64,000 nt of DNA from an uncultured Candidatus Sumerlaeota bacterium (GTDB lineage: Bacteria; Sumerlaeota; Sumerlaeia; MVZB01; JAJFLK01): positions 342,327-406,326 of the forward strand of contig CAZRCZ010000001.1 of NCBI GenBank assembly GCA_964598765.1. The letters are read 5' to 3'. A model generated the notes under the pieces. It was given only the letters and a program-made list of their open reading frames with translations. It had not been told where the DNA came from and ran no database searches. Both the position numbers and the translations under genes were made by a program. This document shows, one piece after another, positions 38,068-46,876 of this stretch. The first letter of the stretch is position 1; every line of letters starts with the position of its first letter.

Positions 38068-38442
38068 TCAAGCTTTGGGCTTCTTCGCGCCGTATTTGGA
38101 CCGGCTTTTCTTTCGGTTGGCCACTCCTTGGGTGTCCAAAACGCCCCGCAGGATGTGGTAGCGGATGCCGGGCAGATCCTTGACGCGCCCTCCGCGAATC
38201 AGCACGATCGAGTGCTCTTGAAGGTTGTGCCCCTCCCCCGGAATATAGGCCGTGACCTCGTGGCCGTTGGTCAGCCTCACGCGAGCCACCTTGCGCAGGG
38301 CCGAATTCGGCTTCTTCGGCGTCTGAGTGTAAACTCTCAGGCATACCCCCCGTTTTTGCGGACAGGCGGCGAGGGCGGGAACCTTGTTTTTCTTGCGAAT
38401 GGGAACCCGTCCCTTGCGAATTAGTTGATTGATCGTCGGCAT
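38068..38442 (-). CDS. rpsL: 30S ribosomal protein S12
   Basis: [12 protein letters not shown]...[37 protein letters not shown]; start at internal ATG 38442 of the longer ORF-track entry. Confidence 0.95.
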
Positions 38443-38582
38443 CGAACCTCTCTCTGTTGGCTGGATTCCCCCGGTTTTGTTCTCCAAGGGAATTCCAAAC
38501 CCTTGATTCAACCAGCTTTGATTGCGGGAGTCAAGGGGGGATAGCGTTTTTTTTCTGCTGGGATGGGTATCAAAATTCGGAG

Positions 38583-38624
38583 CCACAACCGAGCAGTGAC
38601 CGCACGGTCGCGGCTCGGTTGTGG
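38583..38624 (-). terminator. Hairpin immediately downstream of hemA stop
   Basis: Perfect 12-bp stem ccacaaccgagc / gctcggttgtgg with 18-nt loop, directly after the hemA stop codon. Confidence 0.5.
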
Positions 38625-38629
38625 TTTCA

Positions 38630-39946
38630 TTAATCCCCGCGATGATGATTTTTCAATTCCTGCATCGAAAGATGAAGGAGCCGTTGTTTGAGGCGGTGTT
38701 GCGCGGCGCGGATTTTTTCGCGGGACGATTCGGACAGATCGCGTTCCATGTCCGTTTGGATTTCGTCAAAAACCTCGTCGAAATGTTTTTTCAAACGCTC
38801 CAGCGCCGGGGCGAGCGAAACCGCCTGAAGCTTGGATCGAAATTTTTCGATCTCCTGCTCGATTAACTCCCACGCTTTCTGCGCGGCGGCGGTCCGTTTG
38901 GCTCGATTCTCGGCGATGATTCCTTCGAGATGGCTGATGTCCAAGAGCGTGACGCCGGGGATGGATCCGATGGCGTGGTCCAGAATGCGCGGGACCGCCG
39001 CGTCAATGAGGCAGACCCGGCGATTTTCGGACCCGGGACCGCGAAGGCTCTCGAACATCGCGCGCGTGACAAGAAAATTCGGCGCGAAAGCCGCGCCGAG
39101 AATCAGATCGGCCTGACGGATCGCGGGAGCCATTTGCGGAATCGGCACGATTTCGGCGTTCAGTCCGCGCGCGACCTCCTGAGCCTTTTCCACCGTGCGG
39201 TTCACGATCAGCAACTTGGCGGGACGACGCTCGGCGATGGCTTCGGCGGCGACGCGCCCGACTTTCCCCGCGCCGATGACGACGCAAACTTTTCCCTCGA
39301 ATGATCCAAGAATTTGCTCGGCGCGGAGCGTCGCGGCCTTGGCGACGGAAAGCGTGCCGACGTTCAAATCGGTTTCGGTCCGGATGCGTTTGGAGCATCG
39401 GTTGGCCGCTTCGATGAGACGATGCAAGTTTGCTCCGGCCATGCCCGTCTGTTTGCTCATTTCATACGCCTGCCCGACCTGCGATTTGATCTCGTTTTCG
39501 CCGAGGATCATCGAATCCAATCCGGCCTCGACCGCGAAGAAATGGCGGACGGCTTCGAGGTCTTCATAATTGTAGAGCGGCGGAACGTGATCCGGCTCCA
39601 ATTTCCCTCCAGCGAGCGAGAGAAAAAATTCGCGCAAGGTTTCGATGAAATTTTCCTCCAGCGGACTATAGACGTAAATTTCGGTTCGATTGCAGGTCGA
39701 AAGAACCAAGGCCTCCCCGGCGAGTCCCTCGTTCCGCAGGCGTTCCAGCGTTTGTAGGCATCGTTCCGGCGCGAGCGCGAATTTCTCGCGGACGCCGATG
39801 GCCGCGCGATCTTGGTTCACGCCGCACACAAAAAGGGTCGAGGTGGATGTGGTCGGGACGGAGTGTGTCTCTCGATCCTTCACGCGCAAATCCTCTCCCT
39901 CGCCCGGCTGTATGGACTTCGCGGAATGTTGAGTCGGTCGGGATCT
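38630..39946 (-). CDS. hemA: Glutamyl-tRNA reductase
   Basis: [20 protein letters not shown]...[14 protein letters not shown] and NADPH-binding domain. ATG 39946 overlaps stop of upstream hemY-like gene (ATGA). Confidence 0.9.
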
Positions 39947-41394
39947 CATGAAGGTCTGCCCGCCACAACGCTGATTTTTTGCGCCTGCGTCCGCGCTAAT
40001 TCGATGCGGTCGTTGATCGAGACGCCTTGCCGCCAGTTGCCGAAAAAATGAAGCCCCGGATGGCGGCGCTCCACGCCTTCGATCAACGCTTCCACCTCGA
40101 AATAATCCATTCCATATCGCGGAATGGCCCGGTTCCATCGCTCGATGTGGATCGCCTTTGCCTTGCCGTTCCAGTCGAGCGCGAATCCGAGATCATGACG
40201 GACCACCTTGAGTATTTCTTCGTCGCTGAGGTTGATCGCGGAAGGATCGAGATCGCCGCCGAGCATGACCGTCAGCGCGGCGCAACCGGCGGGCGCGCGT
40301 CCGGGAAAGATGTTGGAATTGAAAATCGTTCCCAGAATCCGCAATCCCTGATCGCGGGCGACAAGAAATCCGAATCCGGAGGGAATTTTCAGATCGCCGA
40401 CCTCAACGCCAAGGCCGACGCAAATCAGGGGGCAATAGGGAATGGCCTTTAATCGCGACGCCAATTCCGGCTCGAAATGTTCGATCAGCTTCCCGGCCGA
40501 TTGCGTTTCGGAGCTAAGGATGACTAGCTTCGCCCGAAACACTGTTTCTTTTCCCCGCAGTCGGCCCGTGATTTGAAAACCACCGGAATCCGATCCGGCC
40601 ATGATTTCGCAAACCTCCGCTTCCGGTCGGTAGGAGTCTCCGAGAAAATCCGCAAGGGAGTCGGTCAATTGCGCAATACCCTTTTGGAATGAAACGAGAT
40701 GAGTTTCCTTGGATGAGGCGCCGTCTTTCGAGGTAGCGCGTTGCGTCTTCATTCGACTAAAGAAACCCCGGATCACGCTTCGGTGATCAGCCTCAAATTC
40801 CTTCAAGGTTGGGAACGAAGCGCGCGCGCTCATCTGCGCCGGATCGCCTGCCCAAATCCCCTGAACCATCGGCAGGAATGCTCGATGATAAATTTCCTTT
40901 CCCAACCGGCGCACGACGAAATCCTTGAGCGTTTCATCGGCGTCCACGGGGGAAATCCAAGCTTCGCGGGCGAGGCGACACTTTGCTCCAAACGAAAGCA
41001 AGGAGGAGCGGATCAAACTCAGTGGACCCGTCGGAACAATGTGAAGACGGTTGTCGCGCCAAATGTAGCGGTTCTGCGATTTCAGAGGCGCGCGAACCGT
41101 TTGATCTTCCATCCCGGCCAAGTTGAGCAGTTCGTTAAACGCCGCGGATTTGTCCAGAATCGTATTGGGGCCCCGCTCAAAGAGAAATCCGTCCGCTTCA
41201 ATCGAACCGATGACCCCGCCCGGGTGATCGGATTTTTCGAGAACCAAGACGGCCATGCCCGATTTCTTCAGCCATGCGGCGAGAGACAGACCGGAAATTC
41301 CGCCGCCGACGATCATGACGGGTTCATTCGCCGGCGCGGAATCTTCAGGCCGGGGTCTTTGCGAAGAAGAAGAGGTTGCCATCGCCGTCGCCAC
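39946..41394 (-). CDS. hemY: FAD-dependent protoporphyrinogen/coproporphyrinogen oxidase (HemY family)
   Basis: N-terminal FAD-binding VMIVGGGISGLSLAAWL and amine-oxidase-like fold in a heme operon; cannot distinguish PgoX from CgoX by eye. Confidence 0.75.
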   Translation of the reverse strand: MATAMATSSSSQRPRPEDSAPANEPVMIVGGGISGLSLAAWLKKSGMAVLVLEKSDHPGGVIGSIEADGFLFERGPNTILDKSAAFNELLNLAGMEDQTVRAPLKSQNRYIWRDNRLHIVPTGPLSLIRSSLLSFGAKCRLAREAWISPVDADETLKDFVVRRLGKEIYHRAFLPMVQGIWAGDPAQMSARASFPTLKEFEADHRSVIRGFFSRMKTQRATSKDGASSKETHLVSFQKGIAQLTDSLADFLGDSYRPEAEVCEIMAGSDSGGFQITGRLRGKETVFRAKLVILSSETQSAGKLIEHFEPELASRLKAIPYCPLICVGLGVEVGDLKIPSGFGFLVARDQGLRILGTIFNSNIFPGRAPAGCAALTVMLGGDLDPSAINLSDEEILKVVRHDLGFALDWNGKAKAIHIERWNRAIPRYGMDYFEVEALIEGVERRHPGLHFFGNWRQGVSINDRIELARTQAQKISVVAGRPS

Positions 41395-41404
41395 GTTTGA
41401 GTCC

Positions 41405-42820
41405 TCAGAGCGTCCGGGAATAAAGCGGCCGTTTGCTCGCCGCTTGTTGCCGTTTTAGATGCGCGTCAAAGAGCATCGCGACGTTGCGGACGAAAAGCCG
41501 CCCCATGAACGAAAGACGGATCGAATCGCGCTCATTGACGAGCAATTCATCGGCGATCATCGGCGCGAGCGACTGAAGTTCGTCCTCGAAGTAGCGATTG
41601 AAATCAATATGAAAATCCTCGCTGATGCGGAGTTTGTCAATGCGGTCCTTGCACATCAAATCGCCGATAACGCGACGGCGAATTTGATCGTCTTCGTTCA
41701 AGATCAGGCCGCGCTCGATTGGAAATCGCCCCGAGTCCAAAGATTCCGAATAGGCGGTCAGCTTCTTGACGTTCTGCGCGAACATCTCGCGGACCGAACT
41801 GATCGAAGAAACGCCCATCGCGATCAGATCGGTTCCTGCGCGCGTGGTGAAACCCATGAAATTGCGATGCAGGGTTCCTCCATTGAACGCCCGCGCAAGC
41901 TCGTCGTCGGGGAGAGCGAAGTGATCCATGCCGATATAACGATAACCCGCCTCGGTAAATCGGTCGTGCGCGGCGAGAAAAATTCTCAACTTCGCCTCGC
42001 CATCCGGCAAGGAGGCCGGATCGAGCGTCCGCTGATGCGCGAGTCGTTGCGGCAAAAAAGCAAAGTTGTAAAGCGCGATTCGGTCGGGGCGCGAGGTCAA
42101 AACTTTTTCGAGCGTCTCGGAAAAAGTTTCCTCCGTTTGATAGGGCAAGCCGTAAATCAAATCGTAGTTGATTCCGGAGAATCCGACCTCACGGGCGAGC
42201 CGCGTGATTGCGTCCGTTCGCTCGTAACTTTGGAGCCGATGGACAGCGCGTTGCGTCCGTTCGTTGAAATCCTGAACTCCCATCGAAAGGCGGTTGAATC
42301 CAAGTTGCGCCAGCGTCCGAATTTGCTCGTCGGTTGTGATCGGCGGATGAATCTCGATGGAATTTTCGCAGTCGGAGGCGAGATGAAACCGGTCCGCGAT
42401 CATGGCGTGGGTCCGCCGAATCTGGTCGCAATCCAAATAAGTCGGCGTTCCGCCTCCCCAATGAAATTGGACGACCGGCCGCGACGGATCATTGTGACGC
42501 GCGTGCAACTCAATCTCGCGCTCCAGCTTTTCCAAGTATGGATCGGAGACCTCGCGTCCCTTCGCGCTGATGATCACGTTGCACGCGCAAAACGTGCAGT
42601 GCTCCTCGCAGAAGGGAATATGCAGGTAGATGGAAAGGGGGCGTCCCTCCCAATCGGCCTTGACCCGATCCAGATGCCGCGCGAATTCCTCGTGGCCGAC
42701 CGATTCGTTCCACTCCGGTGCGGTCGGATAGGACGTGTAGCGCGGTCCGGCCAAATCGTATCGGCGGAGAAATTCCCGATCGAGATCGCGCAGGCGGCGC
42801 GTTTCGTTAACAGACGCCAT
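41405..42820 (-). CDS. hemN: Oxygen-independent coproporphyrinogen III oxidase-like radical SAM protein (HemN family)
   Basis: GPRYTSYPTAPEW, radical-SAM cluster motif HIPFCEEHCTFCACN, 471 aa. Confidence 0.85.
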   Translation of the reverse strand: MASVNETRRLRDLDREFLRRYDLAGPRYTSYPTAPEWNESVGHEEFARHLDRVKADWEGRPLSIYLHIPFCEEHCTFCACNVIISAKGREVSDPYLEKLEREIELHARHNDPSRPVVQFHWGGGTPTYLDCDQIRRTHAMIADRFHLASDCENSIEIHPPITTDEQIRTLAQLGFNRLSMGVQDFNERTQRAVHRLQSYERTDAITRLAREVGFSGINYDLIYGLPYQTEETFSETLEKVLTSRPDRIALYNFAFLPQRLAHQRTLDPASLPDGEAKLRIFLAAHDRFTEAGYRYIGMDHFALPDDELARAFNGGTLHRNFMGFTTRAGTDLIAMGVSSISSVREMFAQNVKKLTAYSESLDSGRFPIERGLILNEDDQIRRRVIGDLMCKDRIDKLRISEDFHIDFNRYFEDELQSLAPMIADELLVNERDSIRLSFMGRLFVRNVAMLFDAHLKRQQAASKRPLYSRTL

Positions 42821-43898
42821 AGCGTTTCACCGCCTCGACGAGCCTGCACGCATTTTCCACGGGCGTTTGGGGAAGAACGCCATGACCGAGATTGAAAACG
42901 TGTCCGGTGGCCGGAGGGAACTGCGCGAACAAATCACGGACCGCCAGTTCGACCGTGTCGGGATTGGTGTAGAGAACCAAAGGGTCGAGATTGCCTTGAA
43001 GCGACGCGCCTCCGTTGGGGCGCTGGCTTTCCAGATTGCGTTCCTCATCATTGACAATCGCGCGCGCAGAGGCGAGATCAAGTCGCCAATCAATGCTGAG
43101 GCAATCGGCTCCGATGCGGGCGAGCGACGGGAGGTAAGGCGCGCAACCGTTGACGTAAACGATTACCGGCGCGCCCAGTCCTCGGACCGATTCGATGATC
43201 CGGCGAATCCACTTTCCGGAAAATCGCTCGTAATCCGACTGCCGCAGGGCCGAACCCCACGTGTCGAAAATCTGAACGGCGTCGGCTCCGGCCTCGATCT
43301 GAATCCGAAGATACTGCGCCGCGACTTGGGTAATGCGCTCCAGAATTGAATCGAGCAGATTTGGTTTTTCCCAACGCAAGCGGAGGATGGATTCAAAATT
43401 GCGCGACATGACCCCTTCGATCCAATAGGCCGCGAGCGTCCACGGCGCGCCGACGAATCCGAGAATGGGGAAATCGCGTCCCGCGCGTTCGCGGACGGTT
43501 TGGATCGTCCGCGCGACCGGTTCCTCGGCGTCCAATGCGCGTCCGCGAAGATTCCGCAAATCTTCTTCGGAACGAATCGGGTTGAGAATCTGCGGACCGC
43601 GGTCGTCGAATTTGATCTTCGCTCCCGCCGACTCCAGCGGAATGAGGATGTCGTTGAAAATGATGATCGCGTCCGCATCGAGCGCTTCGACGGGTTGGAT
43701 CGAAACCTCCGTCGCCGCGCGAGGCGTCTTGCAAAGCGTCAGGAAATCGTATTCCTTTCGGACCTTCTGATATTGCGGCAAATAACGTCCCGCTTGCCGC
43801 ATCAACCAAACGGGAACGCGATCCACCGGTTTTCGCCGCAGTGCGTTGAGCAACCGCTCGCGCGGGGTGAGAACGGGTTTGGTTGGATTAAGATTCAT
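42807..43898 (-). CDS. hemE: Uroporphyrinogen decarboxylase
   Basis: RRKPVDRVPVWLMRQAGRYLPQY signature; start at ATG 43898 (MNLNPTK). Overlaps hemN start by 14 nt. Confidence 0.9.
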   Translation of the reverse strand: MNLNPTKPVLTPRERLLNALRRKPVDRVPVWLMRQAGRYLPQYQKVRKEYDFLTLCKTPRAATEVSIQPVEALDADAIIIFNDILIPLESAGAKIKFDDRGPQILNPIRSEEDLRNLRGRALDAEEPVARTIQTVRERAGRDFPILGFVGAPWTLAAYWIEGVMSRNFESILRLRWEKPNLLDSILERITQVAAQYLRIQIEAGADAVQIFDTWGSALRQSDYERFSGKWIRRIIESVRGLGAPVIVYVNGCAPYLPSLARIGADCLSIDWRLDLASARAIVNDEERNLESQRPNGGASLQGNLDPLVLYTNPDTVELAVRDLFAQFPPATGHVFNLGHGVLPQTPVENACRLVEAVKRYGVC

Positions 43899-44150
43899 GA
43901 TACGATCGCGGCCAAGGGAGAAGCGGGTCTGCCAAAAGCTCCTTCCCCCTAGGCACACACTTCCATCATGCCCGTCGCGCCGAATCGCGGTCAAGCGAGA
44001 AGGAACGAACGGCGATATCGCGGGAGTAATCATGGCGTTGAAAGCGGGCCTTTGACCGAAGCGCCTGCCTCACTCTCTACAACCTGTTCAAGAGTTGAAC
44101 TGAAACCGGGAAAACGCCAATATGATTTCGAGAAGCTCGCAAGACAAGGC

Positions 44151-44522
44151 ATGAAAGTTCTCAGTATTTGCATGGATACTTCAATCATCGGGGGGTCCGA
44201 CGAGGAGTTCGCCGAGGAAGGCCGCGCGTTACTCGAAAACGCCAAAGCCGGGGAGGCGAACTTGGTGGCTTCTGACCTTTAGCCGGAGGCACTTGCCAGA
44301 GCGCCTGTGGAAGTGAAATCCGTTTTCAACGCGTTGTCCGAAGAATGTCAAGAGCGGGTTCTCGCCGACGTCCAATCCGAGCCTCTGAAGGACCAATTTG
44401 CGGTGGTGGGCGTTCTCGAACCTGTTTCCAAACAGGACGCGCATCACGTCGCGCTGTCGACCGCTTCCGATTGCGCTGTGATCGTAAGTTGGAATTTCAA
44501 ACACATTGTGAATTTTAGGTAA
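44151..44522 (+). pseudogene. PIN-domain (VapC-like) gene interrupted by an in-frame TAG at 44280-44282
   Basis: ORF-track entries 43968-44282 and 44307-44522 are in the same frame, separated by one amber codon. Joined product ~123 aa with MKVLSICMDTSIIGG N-terminus, QDAHHVALSTASDCAVIVSWNFKHIV C-terminus, resembling PIN nucleases. Confidence 0.5.
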
Positions 44523-44601
44523 ATTCCGACGTATAATGCCGTCAACATCCTGAGGGGATATTTGGACGGTCCAATGTTTTCTCCTTTGGAGGTTGTAACT
44601 G

Positions 44602-44835
44602 ATGCCAAACAGGTCCAAGAGATTCGACTGCGTAGGGATGAATTGTCAAGGCGCAGACAAGATTCGCCGCGCGATCAGAGGAATGAACCAGAACGAAGAG
44701 TTGGTCTATCGGTCGCAGGGAACGGCGCGATTGCTGGAACAGCAGGCGTCAATTCGGCGGACGATGGGAAACGCTCCGAACGGAAGAAAGCCCAGTGGAA
44801 GGATTGGAGTTCGAGTTGAAGGCATCGGGAATTAG
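44602..44835 (+). CDS. Hypothetical small protein
   Basis: 77-aa ORF with GGAGG 9 nt upstream of ATG; no recognisable family. Confidence 0.25.
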   Translation: MPNRSKRFDCVGMNCQGADKIRRAIRGMNQNEELVYRSQGTARLLEQQASIRRTMGNAPNGRKPSGRIGVRVEGIGN

Positions 44836-44908
44836 GTTGGAGGTCGCTTCCTGCGCACTTGAGGATTTATTTGGGGTAAATCCCTTCGATGACTTTACGG
44901 CGATAGAG

Positions 44909-45289
44909 ATGAGTTGGATTACGACAGATAAAAAGGCGATTCGCGGTTTTCTCTACGGAAGCGTGGTCATTTCCATGCTGACCCCCAAAATCCTCTTGGC
45001 TTTGGGAGCGGAACCGTTGAAAATCGGATGGATTGTCGGTTTCTCGGTCATGGTTTACCCGTTCTTGTGCCTTGTAGTTGGGGGTTGCCTCTTGCTAAAC
45101 CGACCCGCAGAAATTCTTATATCGAAGTTCGGCTCCGGAAAATTTAGGGGCGGAGTAATTCTGCTGGTCAAGATGATGCAAGGCGCGATGGCCGCCGCAC
45201 TGATGCTCATTGTCGGGTTGATCGCTATTATTATTTTGGGATTTGCTGTGGAGGTGTTGCGTGGAACTATAAGGGGATCGCCGAATTGA
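44909..45289 (+). CDS. Small polytopic membrane protein, paralog A
   Basis: 126 aa from ATG 44909 (MSWITTDKKAIRGF...); 3-4 hydrophobic helices; paralogous to 45327-45707. Confidence 0.5.
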   Translation: MSWITTDKKAIRGFLYGSVVISMLTPKILLALGAEPLKIGWIVGFSVMVYPFLCLVVGGCLLLNRPAEILISKFGSGKFRGGVILLVKMMQGAMAAALMLIVGLIAIIILGFAVEVLRGTIRGSPN

Positions 45290-45326
45290 TGCCTCGACGC
45301 GGAGATATCGTGGGTGTCGCGAGAAC

Positions 45327-45707
45327 ATGAGTTGGATTTCCACTCGCAAAAAAGGAATCCGTGCTCTGTTCTGGGTTTCTTACCTCCTTTGCATTCTGGC
45401 CTTCTTACTTGGACCCATCAAATTGCCGTTCGATCCGGCGTGGTCTTCCCTTTTGCTCGTTATATCCATCTTTTGCGTCGTGTCTTTGTGGCTGTTGATG
45501 GTCTATGAAACGCTTTCACTCAAAATAATCCGGTGGCTCGGACCGGGGAAACCCGGCGAGAAAACGAATTGGGCGAAGAAAGCCGCTCTACAGCTATTGC
45601 TTTTGTTGTCTACTCTCGTGATCGGAATCACGTTGCCGACAATGGTAGTGATTTGTCTGTCTCTGATCTTCTTCTATGCCTCGCGAAAATTGGTAGGCTT
45701 GTTCTAG
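45327..45707 (+). CDS. Small polytopic membrane protein, paralog B
   Basis: 126 aa (MSWISTRKKGIRALF...), same length and N-terminal motif as paralog A; similar nucleotides upstream of both start codons. Confidence 0.5.
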   Translation: MSWISTRKKGIRALFWVSYLLCILAFLLGPIKLPFDPAWSSLLLVISIFCVVSLWLLMVYETLSLKIIRWLGPGKPGEKTNWAKKAALQLLLLLSTLVIGITLPTMVVICLSLIFFYASRKLVGLF

Positions 45708-45730
45708 CCGTTGACGGTAAAATCGCCTTA

Positions 45731-46876
45731 ATGAAGGGATCCTTGCAAGAACTCGCTCTCGGTTCCATCCGCGATCCTGAAATTGATCCGCTCCTCAAAC
45801 GTGCGGTTGCGGGCAGGCGTCTCTGCGACGCCGAGGCCGAGCGGCTTTTTGAGAGCCATGATCTCTTGGCAATCGGTCGCGCGGCACACGCCGTCCGGAT
45901 GCATAAGCATCCCGAACCGGTCGTCACCTTTAACGTTGACCGCAACATCAATTACACGAACATCTGTGAAATTGATTGCTCGTTTTGCGCATTCTATCGC
46001 AAAGAGGGAAACAGCGACGCCTACGTTCTGACGCGCGAGCAATTCCGCCAAAAGATCCACGAATTGATCGAGGCGGGAGGAAATCAAATCCTCATGCAGG
46101 GGGGATTGCATCCCGATCTGCCGTTCGAGTGGTATGAGGATCTTCTGCGCTGGTTGCGAACCGAATTTCCGATGATCCATCTCCATTGCTTTTCGCCGAC
46201 GGAGATTTCGTTTTTCCGCGACAAATTTGGTCTCTCGCTTGAGGAGATCATTTCGCGGCTGATGAAGGCGGGGCTTCATTCGATCCCCGGCGGCGGGGCT
46301 GAAATTTTGAGCGACCGCATCCGCGACAAAATCTCCCCCGAAAAAACCTCCGCCGACGATTGGCTGGAGGTCATGCGCGTCGCGCATCGGCTCGGTCTGC
46401 GCACCAGCGCAACGATGATGTTCGGCATCATTGAATCTTACGCCGACCGCGTCGAGCACCTGCGGAGACTGCGCGATCTGCAGGACGAAACGGGAGGCTT
46501 CACCGCGTTCATCGCTTGGACGTTCCAGCCAAAAAACACCCCCTACAAGGACCGCTTCTGCGGCGCGTTCGAGTATCTGAAAACCGTCGCCATTGCGCGG
46601 CTCTATCTCGACAACTTCGAGAATCTTCAGGCGAGTTGGGTGACGCAGGGGGAGAAAATCGCCCAGCTTTCGCTTCTGTTCGGCGTCAACGACTTGGGAT
46701 CGCTCATGCTGGAGGAAAACGTCGTCCGCGCCGCAGGAACCAACTTTATGCTGACCAAAACCGACCTCAAGGCGATGGCCGAGGAACTCGGCTTTGAACT
46801 CCGCCAGCGCAATTTCTTTTACCAGCCGTTCACCCCTCCGGCGCGTCCGATTGCCGATCCGGTATTGGCGGCGTAA
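45731..46876 (+). CDS. Radical SAM protein of the MqnC/MqnE (futalosine-pathway menaquinone biosynthesis) family
   Basis: CEIDCSFCAFYR radical-SAM cluster motif and overall similarity to MqnC/MqnE/CofH-type enzymes; subfamily not resolved. ATG at 45731. Confidence 0.65.
   Translation: MKGSLQELALGSIRDPEIDPLLKRAVAGRRLCDAEAERLFESHDLLAIGRAAHAVRMHKHPEPVVTFNVDRNINYTNICEIDCSFCAFYRKEGNSDAYVLTREQFRQKIHELIEAGGNQILMQGGLHPDLPFEWYEDLLRWLRTEFPMIHLHCFSPTEISFFRDKFGLSLEEIISRLMKAGLHSIPGGGAEILSDRIRDKISPEKTSADDWLEVMRVAHRLGLRTSATMMFGIIESYADRVEHLRRLRDLQDETGGFTAFIAWTFQPKNTPYKDRFCGAFEYLKTVAIARLYLDNFENLQASWVTQGEKIAQLSLLFGVNDLGSLMLEENVVRAAGTNFMLTKTDLKAMAEELGFELRQRNFFYQPFTPPARPIADPVLAA

Follow-up and report, generated by a model that had tools for sequence, protein, structure and literature searches.

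Does a PIN-domain gene that is interrupted in frame still make a nuclease, or is it what is left of one? The question is raised by the forward strand of the window, the whole 64-kb stretch of DNA analysed here, in which a preliminary description had identified a PIN-domain gene of ~123 aa at 44151-44522, broken by a single amber codon and explained by nonsense mutation, sequencing error or readthrough. Comparison with homologs, separately assembled sequencing runs and the gene's neighbourhood led us to conclude that 44151-44835 is very probably the remnant of a two-gene toxin-antitoxin-like operon, whose PIN gene is now a pseudogene.

One reading frame in three pieces

The amber codon at 44280-44282 was confirmed to lie in frame with the ATG at 44151, and the segments on either side of it match one protein family in collinear order. 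The frame 44151-44522 translates as MKVLSICMDTSIIGGSDEEF...ASDL, TAG (44280-44282), PEALARAP...SWNFKHIVNFR and TAA (44520-44522). The amber codon is not the single interruption it had been taken for: TAA is a second in-frame stop, past which the homology continues, with 44523-44597 encoding IPTYNAVNILRGYLDGPMFSPLEVV in 25 further codons of unchanged frame. The proposed end at 44522 and the length of ~123 aa had to be given up as well, as the full gene would comprise ~150 aa and extend to ...SPLEVV at 44597. A family HMM built from 97 homologs and run on the window's stop-to-stop segments matched three consecutive same-frame segments, collinearly (Table 1), and nothing else in the 64-kb window. 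A two-segment collinear match to one family is already far beyond chance.

The first piece keeps the first PIN acidic residue, D9, in the motif DTS, and has a one-codon gap (GGS-DEEF in the window versus GGCLDEEF in the family); the second is the best-conserved part of the pseudogene. Each premature stop needs one base change from a sense codon, namely TTG to TAG at 44280-44282 and AAA to TAA at 44520-44522. Homologs mostly stop 0-2 codons after EVV (up to 5 in P0003); the native stop is absent in the window, and the frame remains open to 44819, a loss that one small indel close to the end of the gene would explain. The window copy hence has no uninterrupted ~150-aa frame, with TAG at 44280, TAA at 44520 and the native stop gone, and translation from the ATG at 44151 stops after 43 codons, so that no PIN nuclease can be made. 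At the same time, the three pieces stay in a single frame for ~450 nt, and 31 residues that are invariant in the family are kept (D9, D96 and SWNFKHIV included), so either the inactivation is recent or some constraint remains.

For annotation, this means that one pseudogene at 44151-44597 replaces two or three small ORFs or an antisense ORF. The latter (129 aa, 44229-44618, reverse strand) is what gene calling on the SRR12313479 assembly had produced instead of the PIN fragments and the downstream gene; we rejected it as an opposite-strand shadow of the PIN homology.

Table 1. Coordinates of the interrupted gene, its partner and adjoining genes in the window
Feature	Position	Strand	Details
hemN	41405-42820	-	overlaps hemE by 14 nt
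hemE	42807-43898	-	part of the heme-biosynthesis run
PIN-like pseudogene, piece 1	44151-44279	+	43 codons, MKVLSICMDTSIIGGS-DEEF...SDL; HMM positions 1-44, 32.9 bits; begins exactly at ATG 44151
First premature stop, TAG (amber)	44280-44282	+	mostly-Leu column; CTG in closest homolog
PIN-like pseudogene, piece 2	44283-44519	+	79 codons, with DAHHVA and SWNFKHIV; HMM positions 48-123, 83.8 bits
Second premature stop, TAA (ochre)	44520-44522	+	column is Lys in 94% of homologs; AAG in closest homolog
PIN-like pseudogene, piece 3	44523-44597	+	25 codons, IPTYNAVNILRGYLDGPMFSPLEVV; HMM positions 126-150, 13.1 bits; same frame as pieces 1 and 2
GGAGG, Shine-Dalgarno-like site	44588-44592	+	9 nt 5' of the partner ATG, inside the conserved LEVV codons
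Junction without native stop	44598-44604	+	TGA 44600-44602 is one frame off the PIN frame and overlaps the partner ATG as TGATG
Partner gene, putative antitoxin	44602-44835	+	intact 77-aa ORF, MPNRSKRFDCVGMN... / MPNRSKRFDCVGMNCQGADKIRRAIRGMNQNEELVY..., KxFDCVxM motif
Small membrane-protein ORF, first	44795-45289	+	no Pfam family
Small membrane-protein ORF, second	45327-45707	+	no Pfam family
CofH/MqnC-like radical-SAM gene	45731-46876		on the other side of the locus from the heme run

The window's source is metagenome-derived, and the stops might in principle be sequencing or assembly errors in a genome that truly carries sense codons. However, the whole locus was recovered identically from two runs that were assembled separately, both of which probably belong to the study that the window itself comes from: a 14.4-kb contig of SRR12313479 and a 3.7-kb contig of SRR12313480 share 10,620 and 3,701 bases with the window, respectively, at 100% identity and with both stops included in each case. 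An NCBI contig of 454,576 bp holds a third copy of the sequence, and exact-protein look-ups of the neighbouring genes returned the same two Logan runs only, with no variant allele. Two separate codons would each need a substitution error, which would still leave the missing native stop, the codon gap and the replaced conserved residues unexplained. We therefore regard an error as very unlikely.

Both interruptions are UAR codons, as would be expected if TAG and/or TAA encoded an amino acid in this organism. Yet 36 long ORFs selected in the window end in TGA (24), TAA (8) or TAG (4), ORFs of up to 1303 codons run uninterrupted under the standard code, and TAA ends both hemE and the radical-SAM gene adjoining the locus. 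Stop usage in the long ORFs effectively refutes an alternative code, to which we assign a negligible probability.

Family fold and eroded residues

The PIN-like identity that had been suggested for the gene holds at the level of its family but could not be recovered from the window copy itself. The joined translation, searched against PIN/VapC models as the preliminary description had recommended, yielded no Pfam or NCBIfam match (E ≤ 1) and nothing above threshold for the curated PIN profiles (Pfam PIN and PIN_3, NCBIfam TIGR00305), a result that on that description's own terms formally speaks against the assignment. Its relatives behave differently. With a 153-residue query spanning both stops, 274 homologs were found in a large protein collection at 97% coverage, the best of them 52% identical to the window copy and the others 42-73% identical to that closest homolog, P0001. 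They are ~150 aa long (nearly all listed, 147-168 aa), and many carry weak precomputed matches to PF13470 (PIN_3). When homologs were rescanned individually, P0001 and P0007 exceeded the PIN_3 gathering score of 27 over the whole model (30.3 and 34.6 bits, respectively), and many other members, P0073, P0015 and P0109 among them, came to lie just under it (22-27 bits).

Structure prediction pointed the same way. The AlphaFold model of P0001, built on a 97-sequence alignment, has a mean pLDDT of 94 and shows the three-layer alpha/beta/alpha arrangement with a parallel sheet that defines the PIN fold. The PDB entries most similar to it are VapC toxins (3zvk, 5x3t, 5h4g, 5ecw and 6a7v; Foldseek probability 1.0, TM 0.56-0.68), with TM values of 0.58-0.68 for 3zvk, 5x3t and 5ecw. 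A PDB profile search by sequence gave chance matches only (a formyltransferase, E~0.6), and PADLOC returned no meaningful match for the PIN protein or its partner. As judged from the predicted fold and, marginally, from the profile scores, the family is a divergent PIN_3/VapC-like group within the PIN superfamily, and the window copy fails against PIN models because it has decayed, not because the family was wrongly assigned.

Erosion of the window copy extends beyond its stops. At the 47 columns conserved in at least 90% of sequences, it deviates at 9, compared with a mean of 1.08 (SD 1.17, maximum 7) for 120 homologs, although this excess divergence and the ancestral intact state are inseparable from a naturally long branch, because the organism has no close relative among the genomes scanned. 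Lowering the conservation threshold to 80% and 70% gave deviations at 20 of 65 and 25 of 75 columns, and at all three thresholds the window copy was the most deviant sequence, above each of the 120 homologs. Changes at conserved positions include Y7C, S24G, Y83F and H121N. In addition, Ala47 (GCA, 44289-44291) takes the place of a Glu that is 99% conserved among homologs as part of an S-x5-EL motif and is, by analogy with VapC, likely the second active-site acid. In the alignment, the set of likely active-site acids is consequently incomplete, with D9 and D96 kept and the Glu replaced by Ala47. The PIN gene was uninterrupted in 82 of 82 other loci, which were taken from best tblastn hits, a selection that favours intact copies.

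Compared with its intact homologs, the window copy thus carries disabling lesions that are reproduced in two separately assembled runs. The earlier option of a toxin inactivated by nonsense mutation was right in kind, but the damage is larger than assumed and comprises two nonsense codons, loss of the native stop, a one-codon gap and the replacement of conserved residues. Since it has no intact ORF, no complete set of the likely active-site acids and no profile match, the copy is best recorded as a pseudogene of the PIN family, rather than as a VapC toxin.

Programmed or leaky readthrough of TAG and TAA would keep the gene alive and supply a small amount of full-length PIN protein. The frame is indeed kept across both stops, flanked by good homology, and the base after the TAG is C, with which termination is relatively weak in E. 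coli. However, a ribosome would have to pass two different stop codons, both of which terminate normal long ORFs in the window, and, with the native stop missing, would add ~70 extra residues as a nonsense tail to a product that still has Ala for the likely catalytic Glu and the deviations at conserved columns described above. Interruptions were seen in 0 of 82 homolog loci, so that the stops do not recur there. Signals of programmed recoding were likewise missing: an Rfam search of 43800-45000 (E ≤ 1) matched no family, the 90 nt after TAG and after TAA folded no better than shuffled sequences (z = -0.73 and -1.53, respectively), leaving neither a stimulatory structure nor a known element, and the 64-kb window contains no tRNA. 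We consider readthrough exceedingly improbable. Two of the options that the preliminary description had kept in play, sequencing error and readthrough, are therefore disfavoured by the identical runs, the normal use of all three stops and the lack of an Rfam match or stable fold.

The pieces themselves might have taken on a new role, for example as a partner-binding decoy, be it the 43-aa N-terminal peptide or a 71-aa, GTG-initiated middle ORF (44307-44522). An automatic gene caller did call both fragments as genes in one assembly, and the middle piece is the best conserved (83.8 bits). The gene-caller support carries little weight, since the antisense ORF was chosen in the other assembly, and the homologs are all ~150 aa long, with no short-fragment family among them. 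Moreover, VapC structures show that a PIN active site is assembled from residues of three parts of the protein, namely the N-terminal strand, helix 3 and the C-terminal half. Functional fragments thus appear about as improbable as a sequencing error, and the reading as a pseudogene is retained.

The downstream partner and its neighbourhood

The observation that no antitoxin-like gene is evident upstream was correct: the upstream 250 bp constitute a divergent intergenic region before hemE, the true start of which is at 43898. The same does not apply to the locus as a whole, as a conserved partner gene lies directly downstream, at 44602-44835. A partner HMM from which the window sequence had been left out gives it 50.8 bits, and the GGAGG site in front of it would let it be translated uncoupled from the broken upstream gene. 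Using a five-sequence HMM, we detected a 60-80-aa partner directly 3' of the PIN gene and on the same strand in 65 of the 82 homolog loci. Of the 59 junctions scored, 57 have a spacing of -32 to +1 nt between the stop of the PIN gene and the start of the partner, so that the two overlap or abut, most commonly as ATGA. The pair is thus organized like a type II module, that is, as two small, adjacent, co-oriented and paired genes with overlapping or abutting stop and start. An upstream antitoxin with an RHH, AbrB, Phd or HTH DNA-binding domain is not part of this arrangement, and no Pfam or NCBIfam DNA-binding domain was found in the partner. Tblastn had also indicated a C-terminal extension past residue 150 of the PIN protein in some metagenome loci; this was rejected, as the three loci with listed ORFs, L087, L091 and L088, each have separate PIN and partner genes and no fusion.

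The window partner deviates at 3 of 10 conserved columns, a value equalled by one of 91 homologs and thus high, but within the range of the family. With 0 stops in 77 partner codons versus 2 in 150 PIN codons, the difference between the two genes is not significant. A search with an alignment as query showed that the partner family has at least 2193 members, every one of them 'hypothetical'; a single-sequence search with the window partner found itself only. The structural model of the window partner is a two-helix hairpin (pLDDT ≥96 over residues ~10-50) with a disordered tail after it, and a fold search with this model gave no PDB match. Some partner-family homologs, namely P0122, P0123, P0130 and P0141, all from outside the window, are ~120-130 aa long and consist of two tandem KxFDCVEMK units. 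A scan of the + strand for promoters and terminators revealed nothing above shuffle expectation.

The partner is a putative antitoxin of the PIN gene. It may still be expressed or useful and may persist as an orphan antitoxin-like gene. A variant of this scenario is that some activity of the PIN gene remains: if both stops were occasionally read through, or if the genome encoded a suppressor tRNA elsewhere, traces of an extended PIN protein would be made, and the stops would attenuate toxin dosage, with the intact partner as a check. We give this variant hardly any credence. It is more likely that the PIN gene and its KxFDCVEMK partner belong to a so far uncharacterised toxin-antitoxin family that has the toxin first and counts thousands of members, in which case the window would hold a decayed copy.

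To the left of the locus, a heme-biosynthesis run on the reverse strand (~38200-43898) comprises GlutR (hemA-like), an amine-oxidase/protoporphyrinogen-oxidase-like gene, hemN and hemE. To its right, the two small membrane-protein ORFs have an N-terminus of the form MSWI(T/S)T.KK.IR in common and are 24% identical over 107 residues from Met39 of the first (E=0.03), which makes tandem paralogy probable. Although listed from 44795, the upstream ORF of the two probably starts at the ATG at ~44909-44911 and would therefore not overlap the partner gene. GC content is 0.48-0.53 over 44300-45800, compared with 0.57-0.61 in the flanking heme genes and >0.60 beyond 47000, a dip that is consistent with later insertion of the PIN/partner pair and the two membrane-protein genes. 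Scanning 185,579 species-representative genomes with hemE yielded best relatives, unclassified 'bacterium' MAGs, of just 47-49% identity and no orthologous locus to compare, which places the source of the window in an uncultured lineage that branches deeply.

Probable course of the decay and known systems

The history that would best join these observations begins with a PIN-toxin/partner operon acquired between hemE and the radical-SAM (CofH/MqnC-like) gene. Its first gene would have encoded a PIN-domain nuclease of ~150 aa (VapC-like and PIN_3-related), presumably a toxin, followed by the ~70-aa helical partner, with a start overlapping the PIN stop. Two point mutations would then have created the in-frame stops, TAG from a codon for Leu at 44280 and TAA from one for Lys at 44520. 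In addition, the native stop would have been lost, one codon dropped and several conserved residues replaced, the probable active-site Glu among them. In this probable order of events, toxin function was lost by point mutations and the sequence has drifted since. Survival of the partner frame would be explained by a recent onset of decay, or by an orphan antitoxin doing no harm or being of use.

A toxin pseudogene as such is an ordinary finding, and only the unannotated partner family and the toxin-first architecture are mildly new. More useful than the pseudogene itself is the candidate toxin-first toxin-antitoxin family, in which an unannotated ~70-aa helical partner almost always lies 3' of a PIN_3-like gene. 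If this reading is true, the locus shows decay to an orphan antitoxin. For the window, a small real gene has been identified at 44602-44835.

Among known systems, the VapC toxins of VapBC modules are the closest in structure, and the family of the window gene has the PIN fold in common with Rickettsia felis VapC2 (3zvk), the M. tuberculosis VapCs and Shigella VapC (5ecw). Like VapC, its members are ~150 aa long and present the N-terminal D-T-S, the S-x5-E-L and the D-A-x-H motifs at the expected places, and, as in VapBC, a small partner gene is tightly linked in the operon. By analogy, the family presumably works like VapC. In contrast to VapBC, the PIN gene comes first and the partner second, and the partner is a predicted two-helix hairpin without a recognisable RHH, AbrB, Phd or HTH domain. 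The fourth acidic position of VapC is apparently an invariant Asn (SWNFKH) in the family, as placed by motif position only, and sequence identity to solved VapCs is 11-20%.

By profile, the nearest described group is PF13470 (PIN_3), together with the PIN_3 clusters described by Matelska et al. 2017 (PMC5499597), which are generally regarded as toxins of toxin-antitoxin systems. The closest homologs match this model over its whole length, whereas the window copy does not match it. On the partner side, the tandem-duplicated homolog P0123 passes DUF7889 with 37 bits, and two partner homologs weakly match the same part of PF18993 (Rv0078B/MenA1-related antitoxin; E~0.02, 15 bits, far below the threshold of 27); the window partner matches neither model. 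A relationship to the Rv0078B/MenA1 antitoxin is only a lead from sequence similarity. The MenA1 antitoxin neutralises a nucleotidyltransferase toxin, whereas the putative target of the partner here is a PIN protein.

Finally, the fate of the PIN gene has parallels. In chromosomal toxin-antitoxin loci, toxin genes often turn into pseudogenes (PMC13617665). A survey of Photorhabdus classed 30 of 80 predicted systems as non-functional, mostly owing to defective toxin ORFs, and pseudogenised copies existed for 41 of the 50 functional systems (PMC13617665). The window resembles such eroded chromosomal loci (PMC13617665) in its disrupted toxin ORF, conserved neighbourhood and second gene still in place. 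It differs in the type of lesion: the defective toxins of the Photorhabdus survey (PMC13617665) were mostly truncated and few were point-mutated, whereas the PIN gene of the window carries two nonsense substitutions and a stop loss in a sequence that can still be aligned over its full length.
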